Source of the DNA: a bacterium
Lineage (GTDB): Bacteria; UBP7; UBA6624; JBBIMK01
Assembly: GCA_037444445.1 (NCBI GenBank)
Contig: JBBIMK010000011.1
Coordinates: 29,083 to 61,082 of the forward strand
Reading direction: 5' to 3'
Length of the DNA: 32,000 nt
The notes beneath the pieces are model-generated. The model made no database searches. It saw nothing but the letters and a program-made list of their open reading frames with translations, and was not told the origin of the DNA. Below, one piece after another: positions 2 through 26,832 of this stretch (position 1 is its first letter; every line of letters begins with the position of its first letter). The translations under genes were made by a program, and so were the position numbers.

Positions 2-1015
2 CCCACGGGAATTTACAAGCTGGGCATCCTGATTACGGAAGCCGTTCGGGGTGAGGGTGGGATTCTCCTCAATCAGGATAATGAACGGTTTATGGAACGC
101 TACGCACCCACGCTGAAAGACCTGGCACCCCGGGACCTGGTTTCCCGCTGTATGTACACCGAAATCCGTGAGGGCAGGGGCATTGATGGAAAGGATTACC
201 TGTATCTGGACGCCACTCATCTCGGAAGGGAAGTCATAGAGAAGAAACTTCCTGATGTGGCTGATTTCACACGAACCTATTTAGGAATTGACCCTGCAGA
301 GAAGCCCATCCCCGTCCAGCCTACTGCTCATTATATGATGGGCGGTATACCCACAGATGTGGACGGTCGGGTGATACAGGATGAAAAGAATACCCCCGTT
401 CCAGGCTTGTATGCGGCGGGAGAATGCGCCTGCGTCAGCGTTCACGGAGCAAATCGTCTGGGCACCAACTCCCTGGTGGATATTCTGGTTTTCGGGCGTC
501 GCTCAGGCCGTCACGCTGCCCTCTACGCCCGGGAGGTGGATTTACCCTCACTGCCCGATGACCCGGAACGCTACGCCCGCCAGCAAATAGAAGCACTCCT
601 GAGAAGAGAAAAAGGGGAATCGGTGGCTGAAATCCGCTCCACCCTCCAGAGCGAAATGATGGACAAGTGCTCCGTTTTCCGAACCAGCACGGATTTGCTC
701 CTCCTCCAGAAAACGATTCAGAATCTAAAGGACCAGTATCGGGGCGTGGCTATCCACGACCGTGGAAAAAAGTTCAACACGGAATTGATGGAAGCATGGG
801 AACTGGGATGCTTGCTGGAATTAGCCGATTGCACCGTCGCATCCGCACTTCAGAGAACGGAAAGCCGGGGTGCCCACTACCGTGAAGATTTCCCCAATCG
901 CGATGATGAACGCTGGCTGAAACACACCCTCGCTTATCCGAAGGAGGAGGGCTGGAACTTCCGCTACAAGCCCGTCGTCATCACCCGCTTCCCCCCCGCT
1001 GAACGAAAGTATTAA
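2..1015 (+). CDS. sdhA: succinate dehydrogenase/fumarate reductase flavoprotein subunit, C-terminal part (5' end outside window)
   Basis: The frame is open from nt 2 (PTGIYKLGILITEAVRGEGGILLNQDNERFMERYAP...), so track ORF 92..1015 starts at an internal Met. Family motifs: HYMMGGI, GLYAAGECACVSVHGANRLGTNSL, SRGAHYREDFPNRDD. No Fe-S subunit gene follows. Confidence 0.9.
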   Translation, partial: PTGIYKLGILITEAVRGEGGILLNQDNERFMERYAPTLKDLAPRDLVSRCMYTEIREGRGIDGKDYLYLDATHLGREVIEKKLPDVADFTRTYLGIDPAEKPIPVQPTAHYMMGGIPTDVDGRVIQDEKNTPVPGLYAAGECACVSVHGANRLGTNSLVDILVFGRRSGRHAALYAREVDLPSLPDDPERYARQQIEALLRREKGESVAEIRSTLQSEMMDKCSVFRTSTDLLLLQKTIQNLKDQYRGVAIHDRGKKFNTELMEAWELGCLLELADCTVASALQRTESRGAHYREDFPNRDDERWLKHTLAYPKEEGWNFRYKPVVITRFPPAERKY

Positions 1016-1085: not shown

Positions 1086-1117
1086 AAAAAATGGAGGGGA
1101 GGAGCTTGTCTCCTCCC
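1086..1117 (-). terminator. candidate intrinsic terminator (minus strand)
   Basis: 8-bp GC-rich stem GGGAGGAG (1097-1104) / CTCCTCCC (1110-1117) with a 5-nt loop. On the minus strand it is followed by CTCCATTTTTTCG. It lies ~310 nt downstream of the stop of the minus-strand gene ending at 1427. Confidence 0.35.
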
Positions 1118-1180
1118 GCCAGAATAAGCGAGACTCCAGAATTATTCAGATTGATTCTTTTCTATCCTGTCTACAAAAGA

Positions 1181-1208
1181 TTGACTTTTTTTACATTCCC
1201 TTTATATT
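1181..1208 (+). promoter_or_regulatory. sigma70-like promoter candidate with no obvious downstream gene
   Basis: TTGACT (1181-1186), 16-nt spacer, TATATT (1203-1208). A transcript from here would run antisense into the 3' end of the riboswitch-controlled gene. Confidence 0.3.
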
Positions 1209-1426
1209 ACATAATGCCAGTGAAGTTAAAGAAAGAAACCGAAATTTTTCCCCTTTACTCTCTCTCGTAGTAGCCGTTGGTGGCTGGCTTTCTGCCCTCT
1301 CTTTGCCATTTTATACCCCTTAAAAATGGGAAGATTCCCTTTCTTCGCACCCTCTTTTATCTGGCTGTCCTGATTTCCTTTATCCTCTGGATTTTCCGCT
1401 GTAGGGTCGTCCCCTGCACCAATCTA

Positions 1427-2581
1427 TTATATGGGCAGGATGACCCAGGCGAGCCAGAAGGGGGGCAAACCGGTGGAAAGGGGGGCAGATGTTTCCCACT
1501 GGTCGTTGTTTGTTCGTAAGATTCGTAAGCCGGGAGCGGATGGGTTTCTATCCAGCACGAATAGTTTATCTCCCCCGGGCGCCAAAGCAATTCTGGCAAG
1601 GTGAAATCCTTCGGAAACGAGAAGGGTCTGCTCCACCATTTTCGTAATCGGATTGAAACTCACCAGAAGGGTTTTGAAAGAAGAATCCGAGAGGATGGCA
1701 TATCCTTTGCCCGGCTGGAGAGCGAAATCTAACAAGTCTCCGCCCAGTGCTTCTTCCGTAATCAGGAAGCCGCGTGAGGAAAGGTTCACCGGGTTCACGA
1801 CTTCAATGCCCCCATCTAATACCCCGTATTCACCCGTATCCGCTACATACAGCAAGCCGTCCTGAAACAGGAGGTCAGTTCCCGCACAAGGATTTTTCCC
1901 CTGCAGGGGTATGGCATCGGGTTCCGGGGTGGAAGGATTGACATCTACGAGAGTATCCGTAGTGGCATCCACAACCGCTAAAAGGCCGTTCCCAGCAGGA
2001 GTGTAGAGATTATTCCGGTCCAGTCGCTGGATGGCGATGAATAGTCGGTTGTCGTGAAGCAGCATATAGGACATCTCAGGAAGTCCATCCGCATCAGCGA
2101 AGGGTGAGAGGTCAATTTCCTTCATAGTGGCACCATTGGTCAGGTTCATCTTGAGGAGTTCAGGACGGTCGTATCGGGAGATATAGGCGTAGTCGGGACT
2201 GATGAATTCCATATCATAGGGGTTTGAGCCAGCGCCTGTAGACCACTGGGAAGTAGTGGGCTGAAAACCCTGCCCGGGGTTCACCATCAGCACATTGTCT
2301 TGCCCCCGGCGGTTGATCACCCAGATGCGCCCTCTGTTAGAGTCATATACTGCGGTGGCATCGCTGTGTATGGGATAGTTCAGCACGGTCATCTGGTTTG
2401 TATCCATAGAATAGGTGGCATACTGGCCGGTTTGAAAATCGGTGGTGACGATGAAGGCGAATGAACTGCCCACGATGGGAGTCGGTAACGGAGGATTACC
2501 CCCGCACGCTGAGAATCCGGAAATCACCATAAACAGGCAGAGAGTGAGAACCCTCTGCCTCCTGATACAGAAAAGATACAT
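1427..2581 (-). CDS. putative lipoprotein, probable beta-propeller fold, under cobalamin riboswitch control
   Basis: 384-aa ORF. GGAGG lies 9 nt upstream of the ATG. N-terminal signal with lipobox-like ISGFSAC|GG. Recurring strand-rich blades (GRIWVINRRGQDNVLMVNP, RLFIAIQRLDRNN, LLYVADTGEYGVLDGGIEVVNP, KLFVLDRNPSAPGLRIL). Confidence 0.75.
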   Translation of the reverse strand: MYLFCIRRQRVLTLCLFMVISGFSACGGNPPLPTPIVGSSFAFIVTTDFQTGQYATYSMDTNQMTVLNYPIHSDATAVYDSNRGRIWVINRRGQDNVLMVNPGQGFQPTTSQWSTGAGSNPYDMEFISPDYAYISRYDRPELLKMNLTNGATMKEIDLSPFADADGLPEMSYMLLHDNRLFIAIQRLDRNNLYTPAGNGLLAVVDATTDTLVDVNPSTPEPDAIPLQGKNPCAGTDLLFQDGLLYVADTGEYGVLDGGIEVVNPVNLSSRGFLITEEALGGDLLDFALQPGKGYAILSDSSFKTLLVSFNPITKMVEQTLLVSEGFHLARIALAPGGDKLFVLDRNPSAPGLRILRTNNDQWETSAPLSTGLPPFWLAWVILPI

Positions 2582-2595
2582 TTTGTCTCGCCTCC

Positions 2596-2778
2596 TGCGA
2601 GATGGATTGAGTCTGGCAGGTCTCCCGGCTCCCGGTTCAGTCTACTGGCGGCGCCTTCCCACCCCGATTTTTCAGGGCAGTGGCATCTTGCCGCTTTCGT
2701 CCCCGGACACGGTGGCAGGGGCCACCCTCGCTTTCACGAGGTTCCCTTTTCAGGCTATTGCCACCAGACCCTCACCGC
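2596..2778 (-). promoter_or_regulatory. cobalamin (B12) riboswitch
   Basis: The minus-strand RNA reads GGUGGCAAUAGCCUGAAAAGGGAACCUCGUGAAAGCGAGGGUGGCCCCUGCCACCGU...GAUGCCACUGCCC...GGGUGGGAAGGCGCC...GAGCCGGGAGACCUGCCAGAC. It contains the conserved GGGAA/GUGAAA core, GCCACUG, GGGAAGGC and a B12-box-like AGCCGGGAGACCUGCC (plus coords 2611-2630). It is followed by hairpin UCUCGC-AGGAG-GCGAGA, which carries the SD, and then the ATG at 2581. Confidence 0.8.
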
Positions 2779-2780
2779 AA

Positions 2781-2789
2781 ATTATAGCA
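2781..2789 (-). promoter_or_regulatory. extended -10 promoter (TGCTATAAT) for the riboswitch transcript
   Basis: The reverse complement of 2781-2789 is TGCTATAAT, immediately 5' of the riboswitch. No convincing -35 element. Confidence 0.45.
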
Positions 2790-2843
2790 TAAAAAACTGA
2801 ACCCTCCGCGCCAGACAATCCAGTGTGCTTTTATTCTTCATGA

Positions 2844-3950
2844 TTATAGGGTTCCATTTCCCTCCAGATGGTTCAGGAGGGATTGATAAGGCGGGGGGAG
2901 AGGGATTTGAAATTTCATCGGGACGCCGGAAGCAGGATGGGAAAACTCCAGGCGATAGGCAATCAGAAATTGCCCGGGAAGGGCTATAATATGCCGAAAG
3001 AGACTGGGAGCCAGGGGTTGAAGAAGTTTTCGGGAGGAATAGAGCGGGTCGCCCACCAGAGGATGCCCTATCTCTTTGAAGTGGACTCGAATCTGATGCG
3101 TTCGTCCTGTAGAAAGCGTCGCTTCCACCAGCGTAAATCTTACCGGGCTTTTGATGCCACTTTCAGATTTCACGAAGAACCGTTTTAGAATCCGAAAATG
3201 TGTCATCGCAGGTCGCGCATAGCGGGTATGGCTGGAAATTTTCTTTCGCTCCGTTATATGTCGTCCCAGCGCCAGCCAGATTTTCCCTTCTTCACCCTGA
3301 ACTTCATAAAACCCATACTTTTTTCGCACCCGTTCCCGGATGTCTCCCCAGCATAACGCCAGATAGTGACGATGCACTTCCCGGGCTTTGAGCATTTTCA
3401 CCAGAGCAAGATACGCAGAGTCCGTCTTCGCCACTACCAGAAGGCCACCGGTATCTTTATCCAGGCGGTGAACAATTCCGGGGCGCACAGGAGCGCCGTA
3501 AGAAGAGAGGGCACCCAATCGTGCCAGCAGGGCACTCACCAGCGTATCGTTCAAATGCCCCGGTCCGGGATGAGTGGGAACACCTGCCGGCTTATTCACC
3601 ACTGCGATATTTTCATCCTGGTAAAGAATCTCGCAGGGTATCGTGGAATCCGGTTTCACTGCAACCTCTGAAATCATCGGCTTGAATGCGGTTTCCATCA
3701 CCCGGATGCGTTCGCCCGCTTTCACCCGATAGTCCGGGTCCTTCTGGCAAGAATTCACCAGCACCTGCCCTGAACGAATGAGGGCTTGCACACGGCTTCT
3801 GGAGAGGTTCTGCAGATAGGCGCCCAGCAGTTTATCCAGCCGGCTCCCCTTCTCATTTCCCTTTACGGTGAGTTCCATCGGCCCTTCCGGCAGTTTCATT
3901 TTAGCCGTTGAGCAGGTGCTTCCCCCCCCGATGGGGCCGGGGGCAGTCAT
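2844..3950 (-). CDS. rluD: RluA-family 23S rRNA pseudouridine synthase (RluD-like) with N-terminal S4 domain
   Basis: S4-like RLDKLLGAYLQNLSRSRVQALIRSGQVLVN. Catalytic motif HRLDKDTGGLLVVAKT. HQIRVH motif. The track ORF extends to 4070 but overlaps fabF. The ATG at 3950 overlaps the fabF stop as ATGA. Alternative starts at 3899 and 3878. Confidence 0.85.
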   Translation of the reverse strand: MTAPGPIGGGSTCSTAKMKLPEGPMELTVKGNEKGSRLDKLLGAYLQNLSRSRVQALIRSGQVLVNSCQKDPDYRVKAGERIRVMETAFKPMISEVAVKPDSTIPCEILYQDENIAVVNKPAGVPTHPGPGHLNDTLVSALLARLGALSSYGAPVRPGIVHRLDKDTGGLLVVAKTDSAYLALVKMLKAREVHRHYLALCWGDIRERVRKKYGFYEVQGEEGKIWLALGRHITERKKISSHTRYARPAMTHFRILKRFFVKSESGIKSPVRFTLVEATLSTGRTHQIRVHFKEIGHPLVGDPLYSSRKLLQPLAPSLFRHIIALPGQFLIAYRLEFSHPASGVPMKFQIPLPPPYQSLLNHLEGNGTL

Positions 3951-5194
3951 TCTTCCTGCATTTTCTTGAAAATGAGGCAGGCATTGTGCCCGCCGAAGCC
4001 GAAGGAATTGGTAAGGGCGATACGAACTTCCTTTCGCCGGGGAATATGGGGAACATAATCCAGGTCGCATTTTGGGTCCGGGGTTTCCAGATTCAAAGTC
4101 GGCGGGATTATTCCCTCGTTCATCGCTACGATGGTGAGGATGGATTCTGTGGTGCCCGCCGCTCCCAGTTGATGTCCAATCATACTCTTTGATGCACTCA
4201 CCGGTATCTTATAAGCATAATCGCCAAACAGACGCTTAATGGCGAGAGTTTCAATCTCATCATTGTAAGGAGTGCCGGTGCCGTGGGCATTGATGTATTC
4301 CACTTCCTCCGGCAAAACCCGGGCATCCATCAGCGCACGCTTCATACATTGATAGGCCCCTTCCCCTTCCGGGTCAGGAGCGGTGATATGGTAGCCATCA
4401 TCCGTGGAAGCGAAGCCGATGATTTCTGCGTAGATTCTGGCATTCCGTTTTCGGGCATGCTCCAGGGATTCCAGAAACAGGGCGGAGGCACCGTCGCCGA
4501 ACAGGGTTCCACTCCGGTTCCGGTCAAAGGGCCGCAGGCTCTTCGTCGGGTCTGGCTCCCATTTCTTCGCCAGCGCCCTCATCCGGGTGAACCCGGCGAA
4601 CGCCAGAGGCGTGACGCAAATTTCTGAACAGCAGACGAGGACAGCCTCCGCTCCCCCTCCCCGTATCATCCGTGAAGCCACTCCCAGAGAGATATTTCCT
4701 GTGGCGCAGGAGGTGGAGATTCCGATATTCGGACCCCTGAACCTGAAGAAGATGGCTAACAGGCCGGGAATCATATTCACCGTGGTCCTGGGAATGGCGA
4801 AGGGGGAGATTCTGTTCTTGCCCTTCAGGTGGTAACGCCCCGTCTCTTCTTCAATGGAGAACAGGCCGCCGAGGGAATTTCCACCCACCACCCCGATGTT
4901 GAACGGGTCTTCCTGGCTCCCCTCTATTCCCGCATCTCTCACCGCTTCCAGGCTCGCCGCATAAGCAATCTGCTGATGAATATCCAGGGTGGGAATGTAT
5001 TTTTTCTCCAGAAAATCTTCGGCGTGGAAGTCATTGAGGGGAGCCCCTACATTGCAGGAGAACTGCGAGGTATCAAAATGGGTGATAACTTTTATTCCGT
5101 TACGGGCGGTGGAAACCGCTTCCCATAATTTTTTCACCCCGATGCCGAAGGTGGAAACTGCTCCCATTCCTGTTATCACTACGCGTCGGACCAT
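3947..5194 (-). CDS. fabF: beta-ketoacyl-ACP synthase II
   Basis: 415 aa. VVITGMGAVS N-terminus, active-site Cys in STSCATG, His motifs INAHGTGTP and SMIGHQLGAAG, C-terminal NSFGFGGHNA. AAGGAG lies upstream of the start. Confidence 0.9.
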   Translation of the reverse strand: MVRRVVITGMGAVSTFGIGVKKLWEAVSTARNGIKVITHFDTSQFSCNVGAPLNDFHAEDFLEKKYIPTLDIHQQIAYAASLEAVRDAGIEGSQEDPFNIGVVGGNSLGGLFSIEEETGRYHLKGKNRISPFAIPRTTVNMIPGLLAIFFRFRGPNIGISTSCATGNISLGVASRMIRGGGAEAVLVCCSEICVTPLAFAGFTRMRALAKKWEPDPTKSLRPFDRNRSGTLFGDGASALFLESLEHARKRNARIYAEIIGFASTDDGYHITAPDPEGEGAYQCMKRALMDARVLPEEVEYINAHGTGTPYNDEIETLAIKRLFGDYAYKIPVSASKSMIGHQLGAAGTTESILTIVAMNEGIIPPTLNLETPDPKCDLDYVPHIPRRKEVRIALTNSFGFGGHNACLIFKKMQEE

Positions 5195-5225
5195 TCCTCG
5201 TCACACTCCTTTCGTCGCCACAGAG

Positions 5226-5234
5226 ATTATATCA
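5226..5234 (-). promoter_or_regulatory. extended -10 promoter (TGATATAAT) upstream of fabF
   Basis: The reverse complement of 5226-5234 is TGATATAAT, ~30 nt upstream of the fabF ATG in the 108-nt gyrB-fabF gap. Confidence 0.4.
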
Positions 5235-5302
5235 CAAACCTGTCACGATGTGGAGCCTGTCCCATTTCGGATTTGGGACTTCGGCGCTATTTTTCCATCG
5301 TG

Positions 5303-7243
5303 TTAGATGTCCAGGTTATGAACGGTGAGGGCGTTTTCTATGATGAACTTCTTCCTGGGCTCCACTTCCTTCCCCATCAGGATGTTGAACATCTCCGCAG
5401 CGGCACTGGCATCCTCCAGTTTTACCCGACGCAGGGTTCTGCTCTGGGGGTTCATTGTGGTTTCCCAGAGTTCGTGGGCATCCATTTCACCCAGGCCCTT
5501 GAACCGTGTTACTTCCACGCTGTCGCTTTCCTCCTTGAGGATTTTGTCTTTCTCCTCGTCGGTGAAAACATACCGCCATTTTTTCCCTTTCTTAATCCCA
5601 TAAAGGGGAGGGAGTGCGATGAAAATTCTGCCTTGCTCTATCAGGGGTCGCATGTGCTTGAAGAAGAAAGTCAGCAGAAGGGTGCGGATGTGAGCCCCGT
5701 CAACATCCGCATCCGTCATAATGATGATGCGTCCATACCGGAGGCGGGATGCGTCAAATTCCGAATGATTGCCCAGAGTTACGCCGGTTCCGATGGCAGT
5801 AATCAGAGCCTTGATTTCCTCATTATTCAGAATTTTCTCATCCGAGGCCTTTTCCACATTCAGGATTTTCCCCCGCAGAGGGAGTATGGCTTGATGCTTG
5901 CTATCCCTGCCCTGTTTGGCGTTTCCCCCCGCTGAATCGCCTTCCACGATGAAGAGTTCCGATTCTTCTGGATTTTTGGAAATGCAATCCACCAGTTTCC
6001 CGGGGAGCATGGTTCCGCCCATGAGAGCGGACTTACGGGTGAGTTCTGCGGCTTTACGAGCGGCGATTCTGGCTCTCGCCGCCATACAGCACCGGTTGAC
6101 GATGGCCCGTGCGGTTTGAGGGTTCATCTCCAGGAAGCGGTAAAACTCCGCCCCAAACAGGGTTTGAACCTGACTCTTCACCCGGGAAGTCCCCAGTTTC
6201 GTCTTCGTCTGCCCCTCAAACTGCGGTTCAGGAAGTTTCACTGAAATCACCGCAGTCAATCCTTCCCGAACATCCTCTCCGCTCAAAGAGATTTCTTTCT
6301 CCTTGATTAAATCATTTTCCTCCGCATACCGCTTGATGCAGTTGGTTAGAGCGGCTTTGAAACCCTCCAGGTGGGTTCCCCCCTCTTCGGTATGAATGTT
6401 ATTAGCGAAAGTGAGGATTCTTTCCTTCGTTCCCTGGATATACTGGAGAGCACCCTCCAGAATCAATTCCCCCTCTTCCAGGGCAAAGGAAAAGGGTGGG
6501 GTAAAGAGGGTTTCTTCCCCCTGGTCCAATTCCGTCACCAGGGCTTTCAAACCCTCCTCGGAGTGAAAAGTTTCCTCAGTTCCCGTCCGCTCATCCTTCA
6601 GCACGATTTTCAGATTCCGATTGAGGTAGGAAAGCTCCTTCAGCCGGTAGCGGATGATGGAAGAATCAAAATGGGTGACTTCCATAATGGAATCATCGGG
6701 GAGGAATGTAATCTCAGTTCCTCGTTCGTCGCTTTTCCCGACCTTCTGAACCGGAGTGATGGGCTTACCCTTCTGGTATTTCTGCTGATAGGTGAAGCCA
6801 TCCCGCCGGACGGTGGCCACGAGAGAGGAGGAGAGGGCATTCACAACGGAAACCCCAACACCGTGGAGGCCACCGGAGATGCGATACACTTTGTGCTCAA
6901 ATTTTCCACCCGCATGGAGCATGGTAAGAACCACTTCCAGGGCGGATTTCCCCGTGGGTTCGTGGATGTCCACGGGGATTCCCCTTCCGTTGTCTTTCAC
7001 GGTGGCTCGGCCATCGGCATGCAGCGTAATACAAATCTCTGTGCAGTGCCCCACCATCGCCTCATCTATAGAGTTGTCAATGACTTCATATAGAAGATGA
7101 TGAAGCCCTCGGGTGCTGGTGTCGCCGATATACATAGCGGGACGCCGACGAACCGCCTCCAGCCCCTCCAGAACGCTGATGTCTTCCGCCGTATACTCTT
7201 CTGTCTTCCCGGTATCCACCCTCTTTTCACCTCTGCCTTTCAT
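5303..7243 (-). CDS. gyrB: type IIA topoisomerase subunit B, most likely DNA gyrase subunit B
   Basis: VLEGLEAVRRRPAMYIGDT, GLHHLLYEVIDNSIDEA, DNGRGIPV, LHAGGKF, GGLHGVG, Toprim EGDSAGG and IMTDADVDGAHI, C-terminal VEPRKKFIIENA..NLDI. The track ORF runs to 7432 but overlaps the upstream gene. The Met at 7243 gives a 646-aa product with a normal N-terminus. A DUF721 gene upstream is typical gyrB context. Confidence 0.85.
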   Translation of the reverse strand: MKGRGEKRVDTGKTEEYTAEDISVLEGLEAVRRRPAMYIGDTSTRGLHHLLYEVIDNSIDEAMVGHCTEICITLHADGRATVKDNGRGIPVDIHEPTGKSALEVVLTMLHAGGKFEHKVYRISGGLHGVGVSVVNALSSSLVATVRRDGFTYQQKYQKGKPITPVQKVGKSDERGTEITFLPDDSIMEVTHFDSSIIRYRLKELSYLNRNLKIVLKDERTGTEETFHSEEGLKALVTELDQGEETLFTPPFSFALEEGELILEGALQYIQGTKERILTFANNIHTEEGGTHLEGFKAALTNCIKRYAEENDLIKEKEISLSGEDVREGLTAVISVKLPEPQFEGQTKTKLGTSRVKSQVQTLFGAEFYRFLEMNPQTARAIVNRCCMAARARIAARKAAELTRKSALMGGTMLPGKLVDCISKNPEESELFIVEGDSAGGNAKQGRDSKHQAILPLRGKILNVEKASDEKILNNEEIKALITAIGTGVTLGNHSEFDASRLRYGRIIIMTDADVDGAHIRTLLLTFFFKHMRPLIEQGRIFIALPPLYGIKKGKKWRYVFTDEEKDKILKEESDSVEVTRFKGLGEMDAHELWETTMNPQSRTLRRVKLEDASAAAEMFNILMGKEVEPRKKFIIENALTVHNLDI

Positions 7244-7314
7244 TTTTTTCCCGCAGGGAATTGCGGGCTTCCTGTGTTTTATCCGGGCATCGCCCCTGTT
7301 CCTCCATCGTTTTT

Positions 7315-8712
7315 CTATAGCCCCAGGTAAGTTAGAACTTTCTGCTCCATCCGGGGCAGTTCTTCCTGCTCGGGTGTTTCCATATAAATTCGGAGCAAGG
7401 GTTCCGTGGTGGAAGGACGAACCAGAAACCACCGTTCACCTTCAAACACGAATTTCACGCCTTGAAGGTCCCGGGCTTCCATAAGGGGTCTCCCGAGGAG
7501 TTCCAGCACAGGCTCCTCGCGAAGGCGAGCCATCAGTTCCCCCTGCTCCTTTATCGTCAGGTGAACACTCAGGCGTTTGGAATAGAACTTCCCAAAGGTA
7601 TGGCGGACTTCCGTCAGGATTTCGGATAAGGGGCGTGATTCCTGCCGCAGGAGTTCTATCAGAAGTAGGTGAGCCAGTAAGCCATCGGAAGAAGATAGAT
7701 ACCCCCGGAGCCCGAATCCACCATTCTCTTCTCCACCCATCAGAGCGTTTTTGCTTTTCATAGCCTGGATGAGATAATGGAAGCCCACGGGCGTTTCCAC
7801 GCATTCTTGATGGAAAGCCGTCGCCAGCCTGTTGAGAAAATGGGTGGTGGCGATGGTGCGAACCAGTGGACCGGAAAGACCGCGCCGGGAATAAAGATGA
7901 TAAGCCAGCAACCCCAGAATCCAGTTCTGAGGGATGAAATTCCCCTTCTCATCCACCACACCGAAACGGTCACCATCCCCGTCCAGAGCCACTCCCAGGT
8001 CTGCTCCTGCTTTTATAACCGCTTCCGACAATTCCTTGAGATTCCCCTCTGTGGGGTCGGGTGTGAGCCCGCCGAACAGCACATCCCGATAGTTGTGGAT
8101 AGAGGAAATTTCCACACCCATAGATTGAAGGGCTTTTTGGCCCACATTCCGCCCGCTTCCATACAGAGGGTCAAAAACCACCTTTAACGGGCGAACGGCA
8201 CGCCCACCCCCCCGAGGCTCCTCCACTTGCCCCAGCAGGTTCTTCAGGTATTCTTCCGAAGGAGAAAGAGGTTCCACGGGAAACACCGCAGAAGATGGCA
8301 AATTTACACCCCTTTCTTCCTCCGAAATCACCGCCTTCCATTCCTCCGGTGGCACCGGAGCACTCTCGGAGGTAAACATTTTCAGCCCCTGGTAATCCGC
8401 AGGATTGTGGCTGGCTGTGACCAGAATTCCCGCTGAAAGGCCCCATCGCTTTACTGCGAAAGCCACCTGGGGCGCAGTTACAGGCTCCGGGCACCGAAAA
8501 ACCGGTAGAAAACCTGCGAGAACTGTCACCATTCTCTCGGCGAAATCCTCCGCCATAAAACGCGTATCATACCCCACCAGCACTCCATTTACCCATCCCT
8601 TTTCCAGTAAGAACCTGGCGATGGCAGATGTGATGCGCTCGGCTTCCGCAAGGGTGAACTGACGGGCGAAAATCCCACGCACGCCCTCTGCGGTAACTTC
8701 CAGGCCCATCAT
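7315..8712 (-). CDS. alpha-D-phosphohexomutase family protein (phosphoglucomutase/phosphomannomutase)
   Basis: Phosphoserine loop TASHNPADYQGLK, metal loop DGDGDR, sugar loop GEENGG, phosphate loop RPSTTEP. The track ORF extends to 8910 across the upstream gene. The MM start at 8712/8709 follows GAGAGGGG and lies 8 nt after the upstream stop. Confidence 0.85.
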   Translation of the reverse strand: MMGLEVTAEGVRGIFARQFTLAEAERITSAIARFLLEKGWVNGVLVGYDTRFMAEDFAERMVTVLAGFLPVFRCPEPVTAPQVAFAVKRWGLSAGILVTASHNPADYQGLKMFTSESAPVPPEEWKAVISEEERGVNLPSSAVFPVEPLSPSEEYLKNLLGQVEEPRGGGRAVRPLKVVFDPLYGSGRNVGQKALQSMGVEISSIHNYRDVLFGGLTPDPTEGNLKELSEAVIKAGADLGVALDGDGDRFGVVDEKGNFIPQNWILGLLAYHLYSRRGLSGPLVRTIATTHFLNRLATAFHQECVETPVGFHYLIQAMKSKNALMGGEENGGFGLRGYLSSSDGLLAHLLLIELLRQESRPLSEILTEVRHTFGKFYSKRLSVHLTIKEQGELMARLREEPVLELLGRPLMEARDLQGVKFVFEGERWFLVRPSTTEPLLRIYMETPEQEELPRMEQKVLTYLGL

Positions 8713-8720
8713 CCCCTCTC

Positions 8721-8996
8721 TCACCCTACCCGAAACCGAAGGCTCGCCACCTGCAAACCCTCCCGCCGTAGCCTCTGCAAAATTTCCTCCCGATGGCATT
8801 CCAGTTCCATACACACCGCCGGCGATGCTCCCTCTACGGTCAAGCATCCTTCTCGGTAGGAAACCACCTTCGTCGTCGCCGCAAGGGCAGGTCCTACGAT
8901 GGTTTCCCATTTCCCTTTAATCTTCCCCTCCGTGTAGAGATGGGACATACCCAGTTTCTTTAATGTGCCACTGACTACTTTATCCAGACTCTTCAT
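8721..8996 (-). CDS. DUF721 (DciA-like) small protein
   Basis: 91 aa. W..IVGPALAATTKVVSYREGCLTVEGASPAVCMELE resembles the DUF721 core (W-IVG-IA-HT...L-V-V-S...A-EL). It sits at the head of the gyrB-containing gene string. Confidence 0.6.
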   Translation of the reverse strand: MKSLDKVVSGTLKKLGMSHLYTEGKIKGKWETIVGPALAATTKVVSYREGCLTVEGASPAVCMELECHREEILQRLRREGLQVASLRFRVG

Positions 8997-9228
8997 CCAC
9001 CCACCAACAAAAAGTATACATCAAAATCCAACAAAATCAAACAGAACATCCAGTTATCCTTCAGGGGGTCAGGCATCGGATTGTGCCATTATTTGCAGAG
9101 TGTCTCCCCTGTCCTGATTTTCGGGAGCCCAACTCTGTCGGGGCAGGCCGCCGAGTGTCTGTGCCCTGACACACTTCCCTGCCAGCCAACCTGAATGACC
9201 TGTGGTGTAAAATAGAGAATGGAAGAGG

Positions 9229-10242
9229 ATGAAAAGAATTCTCATTCTGAAAAAGGGAATACCACCGGCCACAAGAAACCGCCTGGTGGACAGGTTAATG
9301 CGCCTCCCGGTGAAGTATGAATCGGGCTTGTGGAAGGGAGAAGATGCCATTTTTATCCAGGGCTCATTCTCCTTCTCTCCTCGGCTACTTACCCGCTTGC
9401 CAGGAGTCAGAGAAGTGATTCAGCCCTCTACCCCATATTCCCTCGCATCCCGGGATGCACGGGAAGGGGACACGGTGATTCAGGTGGGCCAGGTTCGCAT
9501 CGGGGACGGCTGTTTTGTCATCATCGCCGGTCCCTGCTCGGTGGAGAGTCGGGAGCAAATCATTGCGACGGCGAAAGTGGTGAAGAAAGCGGGGGCGCAC
9601 CTCCTTCGGGGCGGAGTGTATAAACCCCGCACCTCTCCTTACTCCTTCCAGGGCCTGGGCAAAACGGGCCTCCAGTACCTGTCAGAAGCCAGGAAACTCA
9701 CGGGCTTGCCTGTGGTGACTGAAGTCCTTTCCCCGGAGGACATAGAGAGGGTGAGCAGTGTGGCGGATGTCCTGCAGATTGGCTCCCGAAATATGCAGAA
9801 TTTCCCCCTTCTGAAAGCCGTTGGAAAAACCTCCCACCCGATTCTCCTGAAGCGGGGTATGATGGCCACGCTGGAAGAGTTCCTTCTGGCGGCGGAATAT
9901 ATCCTGTCGGAAGGGAATGACCGGGTGATTCTGTGCGAGCGTGGGATACGAACCTTTGAGACCAGCACAAGGAACACGCTGGATATTTCTTGCGTTCCAC
10001 TTTTGAAAGAATTGAGCCATCTGCCGGTGATTGTGGACCCCTCGCACGCCTGCGGTCGGAGAAGCCTGGTTCTGCCTCTTTCCCGGGCGGCTCTGGCGGT
10101 GGGCGCCGACGGGTTGATGGTGGAAGTCCATCCCGACCCGGTTCGGGCTCTATCGGACGGGTTTGAAAGCCTGGATTTCCCCGCCTTTTCTGCATTGATG
10201 AAGGAGTTACACCGACTCCGCCACATCTTCCAGCGGTCGTGA
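9229..10242 (+). CDS. aroF: 3-deoxy-7-phosphoheptulonate (DAHP) synthase, type I-beta, with N-terminal ferredoxin-like regulatory domain
   Basis: 337 aa. ~70-aa N-terminal extension, then the catalytic core IIAGPCSVESREQ, LRGGVYKPRTSPYSFQGLG, LQIGSRNMQNF, VIVDPSH. Confidence 0.9.
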   Translation: MKRILILKKGIPPATRNRLVDRLMRLPVKYESGLWKGEDAIFIQGSFSFSPRLLTRLPGVREVIQPSTPYSLASRDAREGDTVIQVGQVRIGDGCFVIIAGPCSVESREQIIATAKVVKKAGAHLLRGGVYKPRTSPYSFQGLGKTGLQYLSEARKLTGLPVVTEVLSPEDIERVSSVADVLQIGSRNMQNFPLLKAVGKTSHPILLKRGMMATLEEFLLAAEYILSEGNDRVILCERGIRTFETSTRNTLDISCVPLLKELSHLPVIVDPSHACGRRSLVLPLSRAALAVGADGLMVEVHPDPVRALSDGFESLDFPAFSALMKELHRLRHIFQRS

Positions 10243-11528
10243 TGACCCTCTCACGCCCCCGACGAATCCGGGGAGTCCTTCGCCCTCCCGGAGATAAATC
10301 CATCACCCATCGGGCTTTGATTCTTTCTGCATTGAGCCGGGGGACCTCGGAGATTGGGAACCCGGCTCCCGGCGTGGATGTTCTTCGGACGGTCCGAGCC
10401 CTGAAAGCCCTGGGCCTGTCGGTGGTCCTCAGCGGTTCCAGATTTCAGGTTAAAGGGTGCCCGAAAACCGGGTTTCGGGAGCCCCTGTCCCCTTTGCAGT
10501 GCGGGAATTCCGGCACGACTGCCCGTCTGCTGATGGGGCTTTTAGCCGGTCGGCAGGGCTTCGCCGTCCTCACGGGTGATGCTTCGTTACGCCGACGCCC
10601 GATGGGTGATGTCATCACTCCTTTGATGCGTATGGGCGCTTCTATCCTCGCCCGGGGACGGAATCACCTCTTGCCTGCCGCCATTCAGGGTGCCCGATTA
10701 CATCCCATCCGTTACTCTTTTCCTGACCCCAGCGCCCAGGTGAAATCCGCTCTCCTCATCGCTGGAATTCAAGCCCTCGGAACCTCCACCTTTGTGGAAC
10801 CAGTTCCCACCAGAGACCACACAGAGCGTCTGCTGAAGGCGATGGGGGCTCGCATCCAGATTCACGGCACACACATTCAGGTCGCTACCTCTCACCTGAC
10901 CCCGATTTCCATTGAAGTTCCCGGCGACTTTTCCTCATCCGCATACTTTCTGGCTTTAACGGTGGCTCATCCAGACGCCAGTGTTTGCCTTCAGAATGTG
11001 GGGTTAAACCCCACCCGAACCGCCTTCCTCAATGCCCTCCAGAGGATGGGCGCCCGAATCTCTGTCCGTCCTGATCCACCTCCCACAGATGAAACTCTGG
11101 AACCCATCGGTGAAATCTCTGCTGAATCTTCCTCCTTAAAAGCAACTCGTGTGGAAGGGATAGAGGCGAATCAGATGCTGGATGAAATCCCTCTTTTAGC
11201 CGTGGTAGCCACGCAGGCAGATGGCGAAACGGTGATTCGGGATGTCCCACAACTCAGGCAGAAAGAGAGCGACCGCATCCATACCATCGCACAGAACCTG
11301 AATAGAATGGGCGCTCGCGTGCAAGAACTCCCCGATGGCTTGCGTATCCAGGGCCCCACACCCCTTCAAGGGGCCTCCTTCCTTCGCATCGCCGACCATA
11401 GAATCCTGATGAGCCTCGTCATTGCCTGTTGTCTGGCGCACGGAAAGTCTGTTTTCTACCACCCCCACCCGGTGAACATCTCATACCCTTCCTTCTTTGA
11501 ACACCTTCAATCCCTTCTCCCCGGATAA
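10239..11528 (+). CDS. aroA: 3-phosphoshikimate 1-carboxyvinyltransferase (EPSP synthase)
   Basis: PGDKSITHRALILSAL, CGNSGTTARLLMG, ESDRI motifs. The GTG at 10239 (or ATG at 10242) overlaps the DAHP synthase stop. Confidence 0.9.
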   Translation: MMTLSRPRRIRGVLRPPGDKSITHRALILSALSRGTSEIGNPAPGVDVLRTVRALKALGLSVVLSGSRFQVKGCPKTGFREPLSPLQCGNSGTTARLLMGLLAGRQGFAVLTGDASLRRRPMGDVITPLMRMGASILARGRNHLLPAAIQGARLHPIRYSFPDPSAQVKSALLIAGIQALGTSTFVEPVPTRDHTERLLKAMGARIQIHGTHIQVATSHLTPISIEVPGDFSSSAYFLALTVAHPDASVCLQNVGLNPTRTAFLNALQRMGARISVRPDPPPTDETLEPIGEISAESSSLKATRVEGIEANQMLDEIPLLAVVATQADGETVIRDVPQLRQKESDRIHTIAQNLNRMGARVQELPDGLRIQGPTPLQGASFLRIADHRILMSLVIACCLAHGKSVFYHPHPVNISYPSFFEHLQSLLPG

Positions 11529-11830: not shown

Positions 11831-12787
11831 TTACTTCGGGAGGTGGAAGAGGGAAAGATGTAGAGGGTGGGAGTTGGTAATAAGGGCTTTGCCGATGTTT
11901 TTCCCACGGCTGAACCGCTTTTCGTATCCTTTGCCCACCGCTGGATATTTCTCCCAGGAAGGATATTGAACCGCCAGAGAGAAGAATTTTTGAATTTCTT
12001 CCTCGTCCAGTTCTGAAGATTCTTCACCGGCGCCTTCCAGGTCCTCTAATGCATCCAGAGAATAACTTAACAGGAGTTTTGGGGCGAGACGGGTGAACAG
12101 GGAGGGCGTGGAAAAAATGTCCAGGCAGAGGATTCGGCGCTGGGTGGCCGCCAGGAAACCTACCTGCTCTGGCTTCAGGATGAGAATTTCAGATTTCACA
12201 CCGGTAGATGTGGACCGCGGATTCACTATCTGGCGGGTGTACCGGGATAATTCCTGGTGTTTGGAGGCATAGGACTGGCTCATAGAAGAGGTGGCAGAAG
12301 CCACGCGCAGGGTGGAGAGTTTTCGGTCCACCTCATTCCAGATGCCTGCCTGGTCGGCCTCAAATCTGCCGGTGGTTTTCAGGGATTTGTGAACGGAGCG
12401 TGTGGACAGACCACGAAGGGTGGGATAGGCACAATATAAACTGCTGGAGAAGGCTTTTGAACCGCTCCATCGCCCCGCTTCCACACAGGCTACGGGAGCG
12501 GAAATCCGACTCTCCGCAGGCAGACGAAAGGAGGTAACGAACACCCGGTTCTGCAGGGCTCCGATGACCTCTTCGCCATCCAGAACGAACACATCCTGCC
12601 CCCCATCATTTTCCATTTCCACTTCAGGCACCCTCTCCGTATCGTGCACTCTCACCGATTTGGATGCCAGCCCTTCTTCCAGTGTCAGCACCGGGTCCTC
12701 CCCTTTCCCGCCTCCAAAAACCGGGAAGAGGTAAAGATTGCTGGAAAAAACAGGCTCACCCATTTCCCATTTCATTTCCTTTGCCAT
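11831..12787 (-). CDS. hypothetical protein resembling the ARPP-1 / DUF6569 family
   Basis: 318 aa. GGAGGAG RBS. N-terminal pattern LYLFPVFGGG...LTLEEGL...VPEVEMENDGGQDVFVLDGEEVIGALQNRVFVTSFRLPA...VACVEAGRWSGS matches my recollection of that family (LTVFPL...ELxVxNxxxxPVLLLDGEELxGAKQNR...VSCVEQGRW). Confidence 0.6.
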   Translation of the reverse strand: MAKEMKWEMGEPVFSSNLYLFPVFGGGKGEDPVLTLEEGLASKSVRVHDTERVPEVEMENDGGQDVFVLDGEEVIGALQNRVFVTSFRLPAESRISAPVACVEAGRWSGSKAFSSSLYCAYPTLRGLSTRSVHKSLKTTGRFEADQAGIWNEVDRKLSTLRVASATSSMSQSYASKHQELSRYTRQIVNPRSTSTGVKSEILILKPEQVGFLAATQRRILCLDIFSTPSLFTRLAPKLLLSYSLDALEDLEGAGEESSELDEEEIQKFFSLAVQYPSWEKYPAVGKGYEKRFSRGKNIGKALITNSHPLHLSLFHLPK

Positions 12788-12983
12788 TTCTCTCTCCTCC
12801 TTCTGCTTCTATTGTAGCACACCAGTTCGCGGGTAGGGCAGTGGGCTCGCATCCCAGTAAAAATGAACGATTGATTTTCCTCTCCCCCTGTTTCTATCCC
12901 ACGCAGAGGGACAGGAAAAAGAGGAAGGGTTGTATATACAATGAAAAGAGGATAAAATGGAAAGTGGTAAGGGGGTGCTGGAA

Positions 12984-13403
12984 ATGAGAGTGCATGAATT
13001 TATGAGCCACCCTGTGGTGACGGCAAAACCGGACGACTCTCTCCTCTCCGCAGCCCGGGCGATGAAAGAGCAAAATGTGGGGTGCGTGGTCGTGATGGAT
13101 GGCGGGGAAATTAAGGGCATTCTCACGGACCGGGACATCGTCATCCGGGTCGTCAGCCCCGGCCTGGAGCCGGAGGAGATCCGGGTGGAGGATGTGATGA
13201 CCCGGCAGGTGGTGGCGATTCGTGAGGATGCAGACATAGATTTTGCCCTGAACCTGATGAAAAATAATCGGATTCGCCGCCTGCCCGTGTTAAATGGCAG
13301 TGGCCAGCTCACCGGAATTGTGTCTATCTGCGACCTTGCCCGGGTAATCGGGCGGGATACCCAGAATTTCCTCGCCACCGTCTCCGCCCATCTCCCCCTC
13401 TGA
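12984..13403 (+). CDS. CBS domain pair protein
   Basis: MRVHEFMSHPVVTAKPDDSLLSAARAMKEQNVGCVVVMDGGEIKGILTDRDIV and a second CBS unit (VMTRQVVAIRED...RRLPVLNGSGQLTGIVSICDL). The ATG at 12984 follows AAGGGGGTG. The track start at 12957 is possible but lacks an RBS. Confidence 0.8.
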   Translation: MRVHEFMSHPVVTAKPDDSLLSAARAMKEQNVGCVVVMDGGEIKGILTDRDIVIRVVSPGLEPEEIRVEDVMTRQVVAIREDADIDFALNLMKNNRIRRLPVLNGSGQLTGIVSICDLARVIGRDTQNFLATVSAHLPL

Positions 13404-13419
13404 CACCCGGGCTTTTTTG

Positions 13420-14229
13420 ATGTTGCCCCGTTATGCCTCTCTTGCCTTCCTGAATGCGGTGTATGAAAAATACCACCGCCCCCTATTCATCCCCACCGAT
13501 GTGATTCTCTTCCCTCACCGCTTTCAAAATGAAACCGACATTGAAATCTCTGCACTCCTTTCTTCCATCCTCGCATTCGGAACGGTAAAAAGTATATCCA
13601 CGAACCTGGAAAGCCTCTTCAGAAGAATGGGAAAAAAGCCCTATGAATATATCCGTAATGCGCTCTGGCAAAGGGATGAAAAGTTTTTCTCCTCCTTCCG
13701 TCACCGTTTTGTTCGGGGTGAGGACCTGGTATGCATCCTCCGGGCTTTACAGAAGATATACGAACGATACCCTTCGCTGGAATCCCTGTTCTTACAGGGA
13801 TATTCTTCACCGGAAAGCCGGAATGACACCCCGATAAGCAACACAGGACACGCCATCGCTTTTTTCACGAGTGAAATCCGTCAGCACTGCCCCTCCTGTT
13901 CTTCTCTAACTCCAGGGGTTCGTTTTCTCCTTCCTTCACCCGGAAGGGATGGAAGCGGGAGCGCCTGCAAGCGATGGAACCTCTTCCTGCGCTGGATGGT
14001 TCGGAAGGATGAAATAGATTTCGGGCTGTGGCGGAATGTGAGCCCTGCTGACCTCATCATGCCATTAGACACCCACATCATCCAGATTTCTCGCAGGTGG
14101 GGGTTCCTGCACCGCAAGAGTATAGATTGGAAATCGGCGGAAGAAGTGACGCAGGCGTTTCGTCGTTTTTCCCCCCGTGACCCCGTGAAATACGACTTCT
14201 CCCTCACCCGCTACTTTATGCTGAAATAA
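13420..14229 (+). CDS. TIGR02757/DUF2400-like protein (HhH-GPD superfamily-like)
   Basis: ~269 aa. DIEISALLSSILAFG, ACKRWNLFLRWMVRKDEIDFGLW, IMPLDTHI motifs as I recall them for TIGR02757. The start is ATG 13420 or TTG 13417. Confidence 0.7.
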   Translation: MLPRYASLAFLNAVYEKYHRPLFIPTDVILFPHRFQNETDIEISALLSSILAFGTVKSISTNLESLFRRMGKKPYEYIRNALWQRDEKFFSSFRHRFVRGEDLVCILRALQKIYERYPSLESLFLQGYSSPESRNDTPISNTGHAIAFFTSEIRQHCPSCSSLTPGVRFLLPSPGRDGSGSACKRWNLFLRWMVRKDEIDFGLWRNVSPADLIMPLDTHIIQISRRWGFLHRKSIDWKSAEEVTQAFRRFSPRDPVKYDFSLTRYFMLK

Positions 14230-14908: not shown

Positions 14909-15607
14909 ATGGATGGACGAAAGGCAAAACTTTCAGGCAGGATGAAGGGAGACAAATTTCGGGAGGAGGCCAGCTTGTTTCCTACACCAGAAGGGAAGGA
15001 GCCGGCACCTCCGCCGCTGAAGCCGGAGGCAGACTATTTCCATCCGGGCGGTAAACTGCTTTACACGGGTGCAGAGAACTGCACGGATGAGGAACTTGTG
15101 GCGATACTTATCGGGTATGGTTGCAAGGGGCGGACTGCCAAGCAGATTGCCGACGAAATCCTGCTGGACTGGTATTCGGTGAACGGCATGATGAATAAGT
15201 TCAATCGGCAATGTATTACCCGGGAAGACTTGCTTACATATCGGTGTATGGACGAACTGAAAGCACGACGGGTCCTGGCAGGTCTTGAACTTGCACGGCG
15301 AATCTGTAAGTATGTGGGCTACCAGGGGCGGACGCTGGAGATGATGAAGGATGACCGCCCGGATGTAGAAGTGCTGACGGACCTGTTCCATGACCTGGGC
15401 ACCAGGCTTGAAGAAGCGCGGCTCATCGCTCAAGGATACCTCAGCAAATATAACGGCTTATTGGGATGGATGGGCAAGCCGCTGGCGGATATGTTGAAAA
15501 TCAGGGGCATTGGCAAGGTGAAAGTGGCGCGCTTGGGCACGGTTTATGAAATCGCACGCCGAACTACTAAGCGGGAGGACCTGGACTGGCGCGTTTGGGT
15601 GAAATGA
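14909..15607 (+). CDS. tandem RadC-N-terminal-like (UPF0758 HhH) protein lacking the JAB/MPN domain
   Basis: 232 aa. Module 1: LLYTGAENCTDEELVAILIGYGCKGRTAKQIADEILLDW...ELKARRVLAGLELARR. Module 2: ARLIAQGYLSKYNGLLGWMGKPLADMLKIRGIGKVKVARLGTVYEIARR. Both follow the RadC N-terminal pattern (L-D-ELLA-LL-G-KG...A-L...GL...L..I-GIG-KA--L-A--EL-RR). No HNHPSG-type JAB motif. Confidence 0.7.
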   Translation: MDGRKAKLSGRMKGDKFREEASLFPTPEGKEPAPPPLKPEADYFHPGGKLLYTGAENCTDEELVAILIGYGCKGRTAKQIADEILLDWYSVNGMMNKFNRQCITREDLLTYRCMDELKARRVLAGLELARRICKYVGYQGRTLEMMKDDRPDVEVLTDLFHDLGTRLEEARLIAQGYLSKYNGLLGWMGKPLADMLKIRGIGKVKVARLGTVYEIARRTTKREDLDWRVWVK

Positions 15608-26600: not shown

Positions 26601-26832
26601 GAATTTTCTGAAAGACATCCGCTTTCTCACCTAAAAACCCTTTCAACGCCCAGACTAATGCCACCACCCATCCAATCACCGTCCAGCCCAAAAGCAGGTT
26701 CACCAGGGTGATTGTCCCGGCATCTTTTAACCTCCTGTAGTAAGCGATGAAAGAAGGCAGAGCATAAACGGCAATATAAAATAAAATCTGTAAAATCCCC
26801 TGGGCTCCCCATAAAATCCAGAAAGGTTCCAT
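23650..26832 (-). CDS. 1060-aa membrane protein: Imm-superinfection-like N-terminus + DUF2339-like polytopic region + DUF3999-like C-terminal region
   Basis: N-terminus YALPSFIAYYRRLKDAGTITLVNLLLGWTVIGWVVALVWAL, then coiled coil REVEARLERLERKV, then ~20 hydrophobic helices. An internal signal-peptide-like MGKASLFTLLFFFLFSTYSFA (Met codon 24906-24904, preceded by GGAGAGG) leads into a ~400-aa soluble region ending in a TM helix. Confidence 0.8.
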   Translation of the reverse strand: MEPFWILWGAQGILQILFYIAVYALPSFIAYYRRLKDAGTITLVNLLLGWTVIGWVVALVWALKGFLGEKADVFQKIREVEARLERLERKVGVLEPSEQPQVVQPKIPTPLAVKREKLPITLEWETLVGRVWFSRLGGFALVVSALLFLLYAFQKGWIGPAERVLMGIGAGIAMLAGGEWLFNKHRWRESDALSGAGIAVLFISVFASYFLYQQIPSEVYTLFLFSITLTGFAFALRHNSSFLGTLTLIAGTLTILSFEKGRFIEFSLYFFVLLLLAALFNSFRGWLLNFSLVFFVTYPIYILFTQWSIRISPGASEVVFTLAFALFTLSIITKRMYGKFPIRLVDALVFFANSIVFFYLSGEWVGEVVKKLYGRVSQVELQGGYAVFSLLVGTFFALLGLFFSGKRAYDASLRFVSTFSSLIMLDIALLNFTQNYDYLFPAMCLEAAFLIYLSAVLSDASFRVLGGIALMVLFLLYLPEWFVYSGMEISPSPIPFLHKNTIPAYTLMGVLFYAGFFWKRFQEQLKEEEKKLSFIWGILGLISTPLFLFREAWYVASYLDVSQSARLIQTLFWLLESAVVIGLGFRFVSPVLRAFGFVLAGVTFFKVFLYDLFFLPPEVRFLSAFALGVILLVVSYLYRRGRMGKASLFTLLFFFLFSTYSFADFDPKSWKMVREAGAPPLAGPVYYFIVDESTFQYTNSDASDLRLIDAKGKEIPYVFRVMQGKSVETPYSLSYFNILSSPDRKKFEVSAEAISPITRGVTSVNLKVSGYFKGRAKVFASEDAKRWKQVAEGEVYKLQTPAQEHLQLSFPGVTYKFFKAEIEVETYLGGTKTIRFDSFTAAHIQKKPEIYREILPTRQSITHQKNPAQTIIEVEWPYPDIPVEVLELHIEERNFFREYRLEIPDEEAGKGKWREALTGRLFRYQGHPDNPLSIRLSDFRSPRSLRFVIEHGDNEPLNFLKIQWKQWERRVYYPERYTPPLRVYAGNADARAPRYDWAVEYQEKDVGAGPVPLLKWAENKAYAKEPIWKKPGFITTIFIFLSLTLLLAAILVFRMPAPTR

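Follow-up and report, generated by a model that had tools for sequence, protein, structure and literature searches.

A cobalamin riboswitch and a BtuG-like beta-propeller lipoprotein predicted to form a stand-alone unit for corrinoid capture

Introduction

What does a cobalamin riboswitch control when the only gene behind it encodes a lipoprotein that no curated protein family describes? The question is raised by a 32,000-nucleotide stretch of a UBP7 bacterium (GTDB lineage UBP7, UBA6624, JBBIMK01; assembly GCA_037444445.1, contig JBBIMK010000011.1, positions 29,083 to 61,082), called the window below and numbered from its first base. A first-pass annotation, made from the sequence alone, had seen there a B12 riboswitch ahead of an orphan, beta-propeller-like lipoprotein gene, had named the B12-capturing BtuG proteins of Bacteroides as the closest parallel and had suggested an undescribed corrinoid-capture or corrinoid-handling protein. 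We find that the lipoprotein belongs to a large family whose predicted fold, sequence profile and genomic surroundings all lead to BtuG and to corrinoid uptake. To judge from sequence, the locus is probably an independent unit for acquiring corrinoids under repression by B12, with predicted capture of corrinoids at the cell envelope.

A full-length cobalamin riboswitch leads a single lipoprotein gene

The sole Rfam family matched in the window (cmscan) is the cobalamin riboswitch, RF00174, at 2598-2783 on the minus strand. The match spans the entire model (positions 1-189 of 189), includes a peripheral P6 extension and scores 100.8 bits against a gathering threshold of 31.5 (E 2.4e-24); an nhmmer profile from homologous loci recovers the same aptamer independently (E 1.3e-24). 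Every motif on which the initial identification had been based is present in the leader, namely the conserved GGGAA and GCCACUG core motifs and the B12 box AGCCGGGAGACCUGCC (2615-2630, minus strand), the last seen both by direct reading and in the Rfam match.

The aptamer and the AUG of the lipoprotein gene are 16 nt apart. This distance leaves no space for a terminator, and none is predicted between aptamer and AUG, which rules out an intrinsic terminator as the expression platform. What the interval does contain, in both the minimum free energy and the centroid folds, is a hairpin of 6 bp, UCUCGC-AGGAG-GCGAGA (2586-2602, minus strand). The Shine-Dalgarno (SD) sequence AGGAGG (2591-2596) occupies its loop and 3' arm, 9 nt ahead of the AUG at 2581, so that the SD-containing hairpin noticed at the outset is indeed found just before the start codon. 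The same two folds show a second hairpin within the aptamer, GGUGGC-CCCU-GCCACC (2711-2726, minus strand), whose CCCU loop (2717-2720) recurs in the leaders of the two closest relatives of the locus, L162 and L163. These also keep the platform core CGCAGGAGGCGAG 4-6 nt ahead of their AUG. A kissing role for such loops is known from published cobalamin riboswitch structures, and by analogy the C-rich CCCU loop is a candidate L5 partner for the loop that carries the SD sequence; at most 3-5 bases of the CCCU loop region are complementary to the AGGAG loop. The leader thereby resembles the translational cobalamin riboswitches (the Escherichia coli btuB leader and the L5-L13 kissing-loop class), which likewise have a short ribosome-binding-site hairpin right after the aptamer and lack a terminator. 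Unlike in the L5-L13 class, the kissing contact in the window leader is a proposed one. A possible extended -10 promoter element, TGcTATAAT, was read directly just 5' of the aptamer (2781-2789, minus strand). We attach low confidence to it; it is not accompanied by a -35 match and was not reported by a sigma-70 scan.

The coding sequence under this leader (1427-2581, minus strand) specifies a lipoprotein of 384 amino acids, in agreement with the first-pass annotation, whose monocistronic call, with this gene as the one target of the riboswitch, also holds. By direct reading, the N-terminus, MYLFCIRRQRVLTLCLFMVISGFSAC followed by GGNPP, consists of an arginine-rich n-region, a hydrophobic core and the lipobox G-F-S-A-C. 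Residues 1-25 form the signal peptide; with the lipobox cysteine, Cys26 (codon 2504-2506), they take up 2504-2581, and this cysteine is conserved in at least 90% of the short-form homologues described below. The sequence after it reads GGNPPLPTP.

The product is predicted to be a seven-bladed propeller most like BtuG

An AlphaFold2 model of the protein built with 42 sequences has a predicted local distance difference test (pLDDT) score of 91.1 and a predicted template modelling (TM) score of 0.86. It contains 28 strands, which fits seven blades of four strands each, and on this model the window product folds as a seven-bladed beta-propeller. When the model was compared with the PDB by Foldseek, chains of BtuG1, BtuG2 or BtuG3 from B. 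thetaiotaomicron or B. uniformis made up 15 of the 16 top matches, at E 1.7e-13 to 1e-11, a target-normalised TM score of 0.70-0.78 and a root-mean-square deviation of about 4 Å. Entries 8BMX, 8BMY, 8OKV, 8P97/8P98 and 3DSM are BtuG structures (PMC10404256); the remaining BtuG entries were identified by descriptions naming BtuG or BT1954/BT2095. Weaker matches were obtained with AztD (target TM 0.53-0.57) and with cd1 NirS (0.41-0.53). The propeller first guessed at from repeated strand-rich segments is thus what the model returns.

The likeness to BtuG extends to sequence. All significant propeller matches of the family's hidden Markov model profiles in the PDB are BtuG chains (E 1e-5 to 5e-4). 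Direct comparison by hhalign gave 92.8% with BtuG3 alone (E 4e-7) and 93.8% probability with an alignment of BtuG2 and BtuG3 (E 1.7e-7, 334 columns). For these comparisons full-length BtuG2 and BtuG3 were taken from human-gut metagenome contigs; an 83-residue BtuG3 fragment used as database query had returned short fragments only, and the contig of one of them (L081) was ridden with frameshifts. The hhalign alignment pairs lipobox Cys26 with the lipidated Cys32 of BtuG2 and brings the blade-1 motif (D/N)FQxG into register with BtuG (TTDFQTG versus NEGNFQY). Pairwise identity between the window protein and the BtuG structures is 11-16%, and the window protein does not match the Pfam family of BtuG, DUF5074 (PF16819), even at E 10. 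A divergent member of the family, that of locus L071, reaches 20.3 bits against DUF5074 (E 3e-4), below the cut-off of 27.2; BtuG3 itself scores 72.5 bits. Judged by curated sequence thresholds, the window family stands apart from Pfam DUF5074, and the profile comparisons show its relation to BtuG to be a detectable remote homology. The parallel drawn in the first-pass annotation is therefore more than an analogy.

Some sources apply the name "YncE DNA-binding propeller" to proteins of this kind. We regard it as an automatic label and reject it, since the family profile matched no YncE or YVTN chain in the PDB. YncE/YVTN propellers do have the same generic seven-bladed fold, and 1L0Q (YVTN) is a good Foldseek match; the gene context, unlike the fold, lends the "YncE DNA-binding" name no support.

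A family with two predicted surface anchors, found beyond the Bacteroidota

The window protein is not the orphan it had been taken for: more than 1350 homologous sequence clusters are found at E <=1e-3, and identity to it is 37-48% among the best 120 clusters. It was fittingly called undescribed. Neither the protein itself nor its family is covered by a Pfam or NCBIfam model, and in the literature searched we found no paper that describes the family or ties BtuG to the phyla in which it occurs.

The family has two architectures. Short members (about 380-400 residues) carry a lipobox; long ones (about 465-490 residues) have an ordinary signal peptide and a FlgD-Ig / type IX secretion system (T9SS) C-terminal sorting domain. 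Across 75 genomic homologues, lipobox and T9SS domain are mutually exclusive. Such an alternation would be expected if these were two ways of fixing one protein at the surface, an interpretation that the sequences support indirectly. Four homologues from metagenome-assembled genomes (MAGs) labelled Binatia or delta proteobacterium (L033, L036, L037 and L059) have 200-330 extra C-terminal residues and lack the usual T9SS tail of about 100 residues; the extension could be an additional domain or an over-long call of the open reading frame (ORF) in high-GC DNA.

All 22 invariant residues of the family are retained in the window ORF. They are rich in aspartate, with D74, N90, R91, D95, D123, D163, D165, R186, D205, D213 and D256 among them, and include the motif ADADGxPE. 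This near-invariant motif (residues 162-169, nucleotides about 2075-2098, minus strand) resembles calcium-binding loops of the DxDxDG type, and from its sequence may hold a metal with a structural role rather than form part of a ligand pocket.

Members come from MAGs labelled Krumholzibacteriota, Eisenbacteria, Latescibacterota, Fibrobacteraceae, "delta proteobacterium"/Polyangiaceae, Binatia, Thermodesulfobacteriota, Nitrospirae and Udaeobacter. BtuG has been described as exclusive to the Bacteroidetes (PMC6143338), and, outside the Bacteroidota, a 2026 review deals with BtuH and BtuJ alone (PMC13616437). The family is thus found in phyla from which BtuG is said to be absent, which contradicts a statement repeated in the literature.

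Homologues sit behind B12 riboswitches and beside TonB-dependent transporters

The first-pass annotation had raised the question of whether homologues in other genomes also follow B12 riboswitches. To answer it we used an alignment-based scan with one genome per species, which yielded 80 loci; a scan with the window protein as single query had produced 64 pattern matches and no relatives. A riboswitch profile built from Rfam-confirmed matches places a same-strand cobalamin riboswitch upstream of the homologue in 63 of the 80 loci, so that linkage is the rule. Rfam confirms 21 of these 63, and also the riboswitches of L162 and L163. In 16 of the 17 loci that lack one, the sequence upstream extends for under 2.4 kb, too little to tell, and the last (L067) has no riboswitch within 2.9 kb upstream.

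The commonest arrangement (49 loci) is riboswitch, TonB-dependent transporter gene, propeller gene. Twelve loci have two genes lacking assignment between the riboswitch and the transporter gene, and in two, L071 and L057, the riboswitch is directly ahead of the propeller gene. A TonB-dependent transporter gene lies immediately upstream of the homologue in 61 of the 64 loci that are informative on this point, and all eight transporter genes checked with Pfam encode Plug and TonB-barrel domains. Examples of such pairs are found in L001 (transporter gene 7785-9902, propeller gene 9917-11353) and L026 (7863-9986 and 9986-11113). None of the neighbouring transporters reached an NCBIfam equivalog cut-off, nor did a genuine BtuB3 of Bacteroides; since NCBIfam could not name these transporters BtuB, the label "BtuB-type" rests on the riboswitch context. 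In the riboswitch-transporter-propeller layout the operon usually ends at the propeller gene, and the recurrent downstream neighbours are on the opposite strand.

Two loci link the family to other steps of corrinoid metabolism. In L071, from a Nitrospirae MAG, the riboswitch is followed by genes for the propeller, a BtuF-like protein, CobC, CobU, CobT and CobS (1155-6578), so that a BtuG-like protein stands at the head of a cobinamide salvage operon, and no transporter gene is adjacent. In L057 the propeller gene is again followed by a BtuF-like gene, and a divergent second riboswitch drives a TonB-dependent transporter gene; the back-to-back riboswitches are at 6685-6890 (minus strand) and 7511-7711 (plus strand). 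The L057 transporter is called as two ORFs, with Plug and barrel separate, and may be frameshifted. A BtuF-like Peripla_BP_2 gene directly after the propeller gene is seen in L060 and L067 as well as in these two loci. Almost without exception, then, the family is tied to corrinoid uptake and salvage, and its members are normally in the btuG position beside a btuB-type gene.

The two genes without assignment deserve a separate comment. They are conserved, encode proteins of about 459 and 335 residues and, in L026, lie ahead of the transporter gene at 5498-6877 and 6859-7866 (plus strand), without a Pfam match. The same layout is found in L041, L033, L034, L036, L037, L040, L045, L047, L048, L066 and L069, and the MAGs that have these operons bear the labels delta proteobacterium, Polyangiaceae or Binatia. 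At least five such loci have a third extra gene (about 485 residues) after the propeller gene, as in L041 (11053-12510, plus strand). None of the extra genes has a Pfam match, and they show faint NCBIfam likeness only (to ScyE-like proteins and the LIC_13355 lipoprotein); they may encode additional surface proteins that handle corrinoids.

The window belongs to a stand-alone subclade

The closest relatives of the window protein, P0002 and P0003 (loci L162 and L163), are 47-48% identical to it. Both have an RF00174 match (80.6 and 77.4 bits) that ends 16 nt before the gene, exactly as in the window, and both are surrounded by unrelated neighbours. The persistence of one layout in relatives only 47-48% identical argues for long-term selection: the stand-alone arrangement is a variant of long standing kept by selection, rather than an operon that has fallen apart.

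Transporter-linked homologues share 59 columns with a conservation of at least 90%; the window protein retains 53 of these and thus departs at six near-invariant positions. Three of the substitutions, Y87W, Q98L and the charge reversal D330R/K, are common to the stand-alone subclade at sites that are otherwise near-invariant.

Discussion

One can envision the following course of events. The corrinoid-bound aptamer would lock the SD hairpin, through an L5-L13 type kissing contact between the CCCU and AGGAG loops, or would occlude the SD sequence in some other way; the ribosome would then be kept out and translation turned off. With corrinoids scarce, the propeller would be made and exported as a lipoprotein, and in this form it would be expected at the envelope or surface. 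There the mature protein, like BtuG, would bind cobalamin or related corrinoids at the opening of the propeller, and the captured corrinoid would be passed on to a transporter. In most relatives this transporter would be a TonB-dependent one of the BtuB type, produced from the same operon, over which the propeller would sit as a lid. In the window genome, as in L162 and L163, the gene would have parted from the transporter gene while retaining its own riboswitch, and the partner may be encoded elsewhere, or the protein may be a free-standing scavenger.

Several observations weigh against this proposal. The folding energy of the whole leader is not exceptional (z -1.36), and the expression-platform model therefore rests on the Rfam match, position and conservation. 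Among the window ORFs scanned with Pfam over the 32 kb, none was found to encode a TonB-dependent transporter or any other B12 function, which bears out the initial remark that no outer-membrane transporter is adjacent, and no transporter gene lies in the 9 kb and 2.9 kb around the two closest relatives. The Bacteroidota lipoprotein export signal was not found after the window cysteine, and, although one relative of the host GyrB is 92% identical, its best named matches ("bacterium JZ-2024 1", KSB1, Calditrichaeota, Firmicutes) are only about 60% identical, too distant to indicate a type of envelope. Neither the window protein nor any of 40 aligned relatives matches DUF5074 at E <=0.1 (none of 41). 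Lastly, when the corrinoid-contact residues listed for BtuG2 (10.1101/2024.02.16.580637) are traced onto the window protein, most are not identical. BtuG2 F58/Q59 correspond to F49/Q50 and N106 to the invariant N90; W149 is replaced by D138, W194/S195 by Q185/R186, and Q219 by D222, at a position where the family consensus is Q. The contacts of blades 5-7 fall where the hhalign alignment is poor. BtuG1 and BtuG2 are themselves only 24% identical and have roughly 60% of the contacts in common (10.1101/2024.02.16.580637); set beside this divergence, the replaced contacts in the window protein do not exclude binding.

The alternative that the window protein is a corrinoid scavenger or reservoir that stands free of any TonB-dependent transporter, in the manner of BtuJ/BtuH or as a tethered binder feeding an inner-membrane ATP-binding cassette importer, would explain both its own riboswitch and the lack of a neighbouring transporter gene. 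It would also fit the conservation of the stand-alone layout in L162 and L163, the three subclade substitutions and the BtuF-like genes directly behind the propeller gene in the four loci named above. We nevertheless think it unlikely, given that most transporter-linked conserved columns are retained (53 of 59) and that pairing with a transporter prevails in the family (61 of 64 informative loci); besides, 32 kb without a transporter gene tells us nothing of what the remaining genome encodes.

The propeller might also do something other than bind corrinoids, as a chaperone of the AztD type for cobalt or another metal or as an enzyme, and be placed under B12 control to serve cobalt supply or a B12-sparing pathway. 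Cobalt transporters are among the known targets of cobalamin riboswitches. AztD zinc chaperones, cd1 nitrite reductase and the NirF/NirN propellers are significant Foldseek matches (E 3e-11 to 1e-9), and the aspartate-rich invariant residues, with a motif that appears similar to calcium- or metal-binding loops, could be taken in the same sense. Such a role is improbable all the same. AztD is the poorer fold match (target TM 0.53-0.57 against 0.70-0.78 for BtuG) and has no match in sequence, where BtuG alone is significant; the family has no invariant histidine or cysteine cluster; and the scanned neighbours include TonB-dependent transporter, BtuF-like and CobU/T/S/C salvage genes and no metal-transport genes. 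Still further from probable is that the locus is what is left of an earlier btuB-btuG operon, decaying or silent and without current function, as its separation from any transporter gene and its six departures from near-invariant positions might suggest, given an intact ORF that retains the signal peptide, the lipobox and each of the 22 invariant residues, a full-length and high-scoring riboswitch, and a layout kept in relatives 47-48% identical.

Returning to B12-repressed corrinoid capture, the comparison with BtuG reveals likeness in the seven-bladed fold, in the lipoprotein signal with its aligned cysteine and in the cobalamin riboswitch. The members of the family are likewise encoded beside a TonB-dependent transporter; the window gene, by contrast, stands alone. 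The two differ in their export signal (MKWD after the cysteine of BtuG2, GGNPPLPTP in the window, which upholds the earlier remark that the lipobox context does not look like that of the Bacteroidetes). Gene order differs too, the family having transporter then propeller and btuG3 standing ahead of btuB3 in L112, and many family members, unlike BtuG, carry a T9SS C-terminal domain in place of a lipid anchor.

For an undocked copy, BtuH and BtuJ (DUF4465) offer a possible analogy: they are riboswitch-regulated extracytoplasmic proteins thought to capture corrinoids, and they were already known beyond the Bacteroidota (PMC13616437; PMC13398666). Their folds are unrelated to the propeller: BtuJ is a beta-jelly roll (PMC13398666), and BtuH has a separate B12-binding domain (PMC8941943). 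Searches with Pfam and with Foldseek against the PDB revealed no sequence or structural likeness of the window protein to either.

We tentatively suggest, as a broader conjecture, that BtuG-type lids, rather than being peculiar to the Bacteroidota, may be an ancient class spread over many phyla, whose members sit on BtuB-type transporters and are held in place by lipid or through the T9SS. The window would then belong to a derived lineage that has the lid gene outside the transporter operon, under its own translational riboswitch, with changed residues (Y87W, Q98L, D330R/K), and whose product may be a free-standing scavenger. The underlying mechanism would be an extension of a known one. Its reach is of interest, as the family, usually beside a TonB-dependent transporter and almost always under B12-riboswitch control, occurs in phyla of soil, sediment and groundwater. 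If its members bind corrinoids, "lid plus barrel" piracy of B12 would be widespread in environmental bacteria, T9SS anchoring would join the lipid anchor as a means of attachment for such lids, and these proteins, currently labelled hypothetical, YncE-like or T9SS-sorting, would provide an annotation marker for corrinoid scavenging in uncultured lineages.

Other features of the window

As first noted, the gene downstream of the lipoprotein gene is convergent: the ORF at 92-1015 (plus strand) encodes the C-terminus of a flavoprotein (FAD_binding_2 and Succ_DH_flav_C by Pfam). Between the two, a weak element resembling a terminator, GGGA-AUCU-UCCC and then AUUUUUA, is found at 1322-1339 (minus strand), about 90 nt past the stop codon of the lipoprotein gene, and a stronger one at 1097-1117 (minus strand). 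On the upstream side lies a pseudouridine synthase gene (2844-4070, minus strand; Pfam). Its ORF shares 124 nt with the end of a fabF-like gene (3947-5194, minus strand), and the S4 domain is reached only at residue 77; the true start is probably further downstream.

The remaining window ORFs scanned with Pfam have housekeeping annotations or annotations without a function. An ARPP-1 domain protein (PF20208, 238 bits; 11831-12787, minus strand) is followed in the numbering by a 189-residue ORF without a Pfam match (12809-13378, minus strand) and a divergent DUF2400 gene (13417-14229, plus strand). A RadC-like gene with a UPF0758 N-terminal domain (14909-15607, plus strand) precedes one for an 844-residue protein (15617-18151, plus strand), the N-terminus of which matches several DNA methyltransferase families, while its other 700 or so residues have no assignment. 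A predicted membrane protein of 1060 residues (23650-26832, minus strand) combines a superinfection-immunity domain (PF14373) with DUF2339 and DUF3999.

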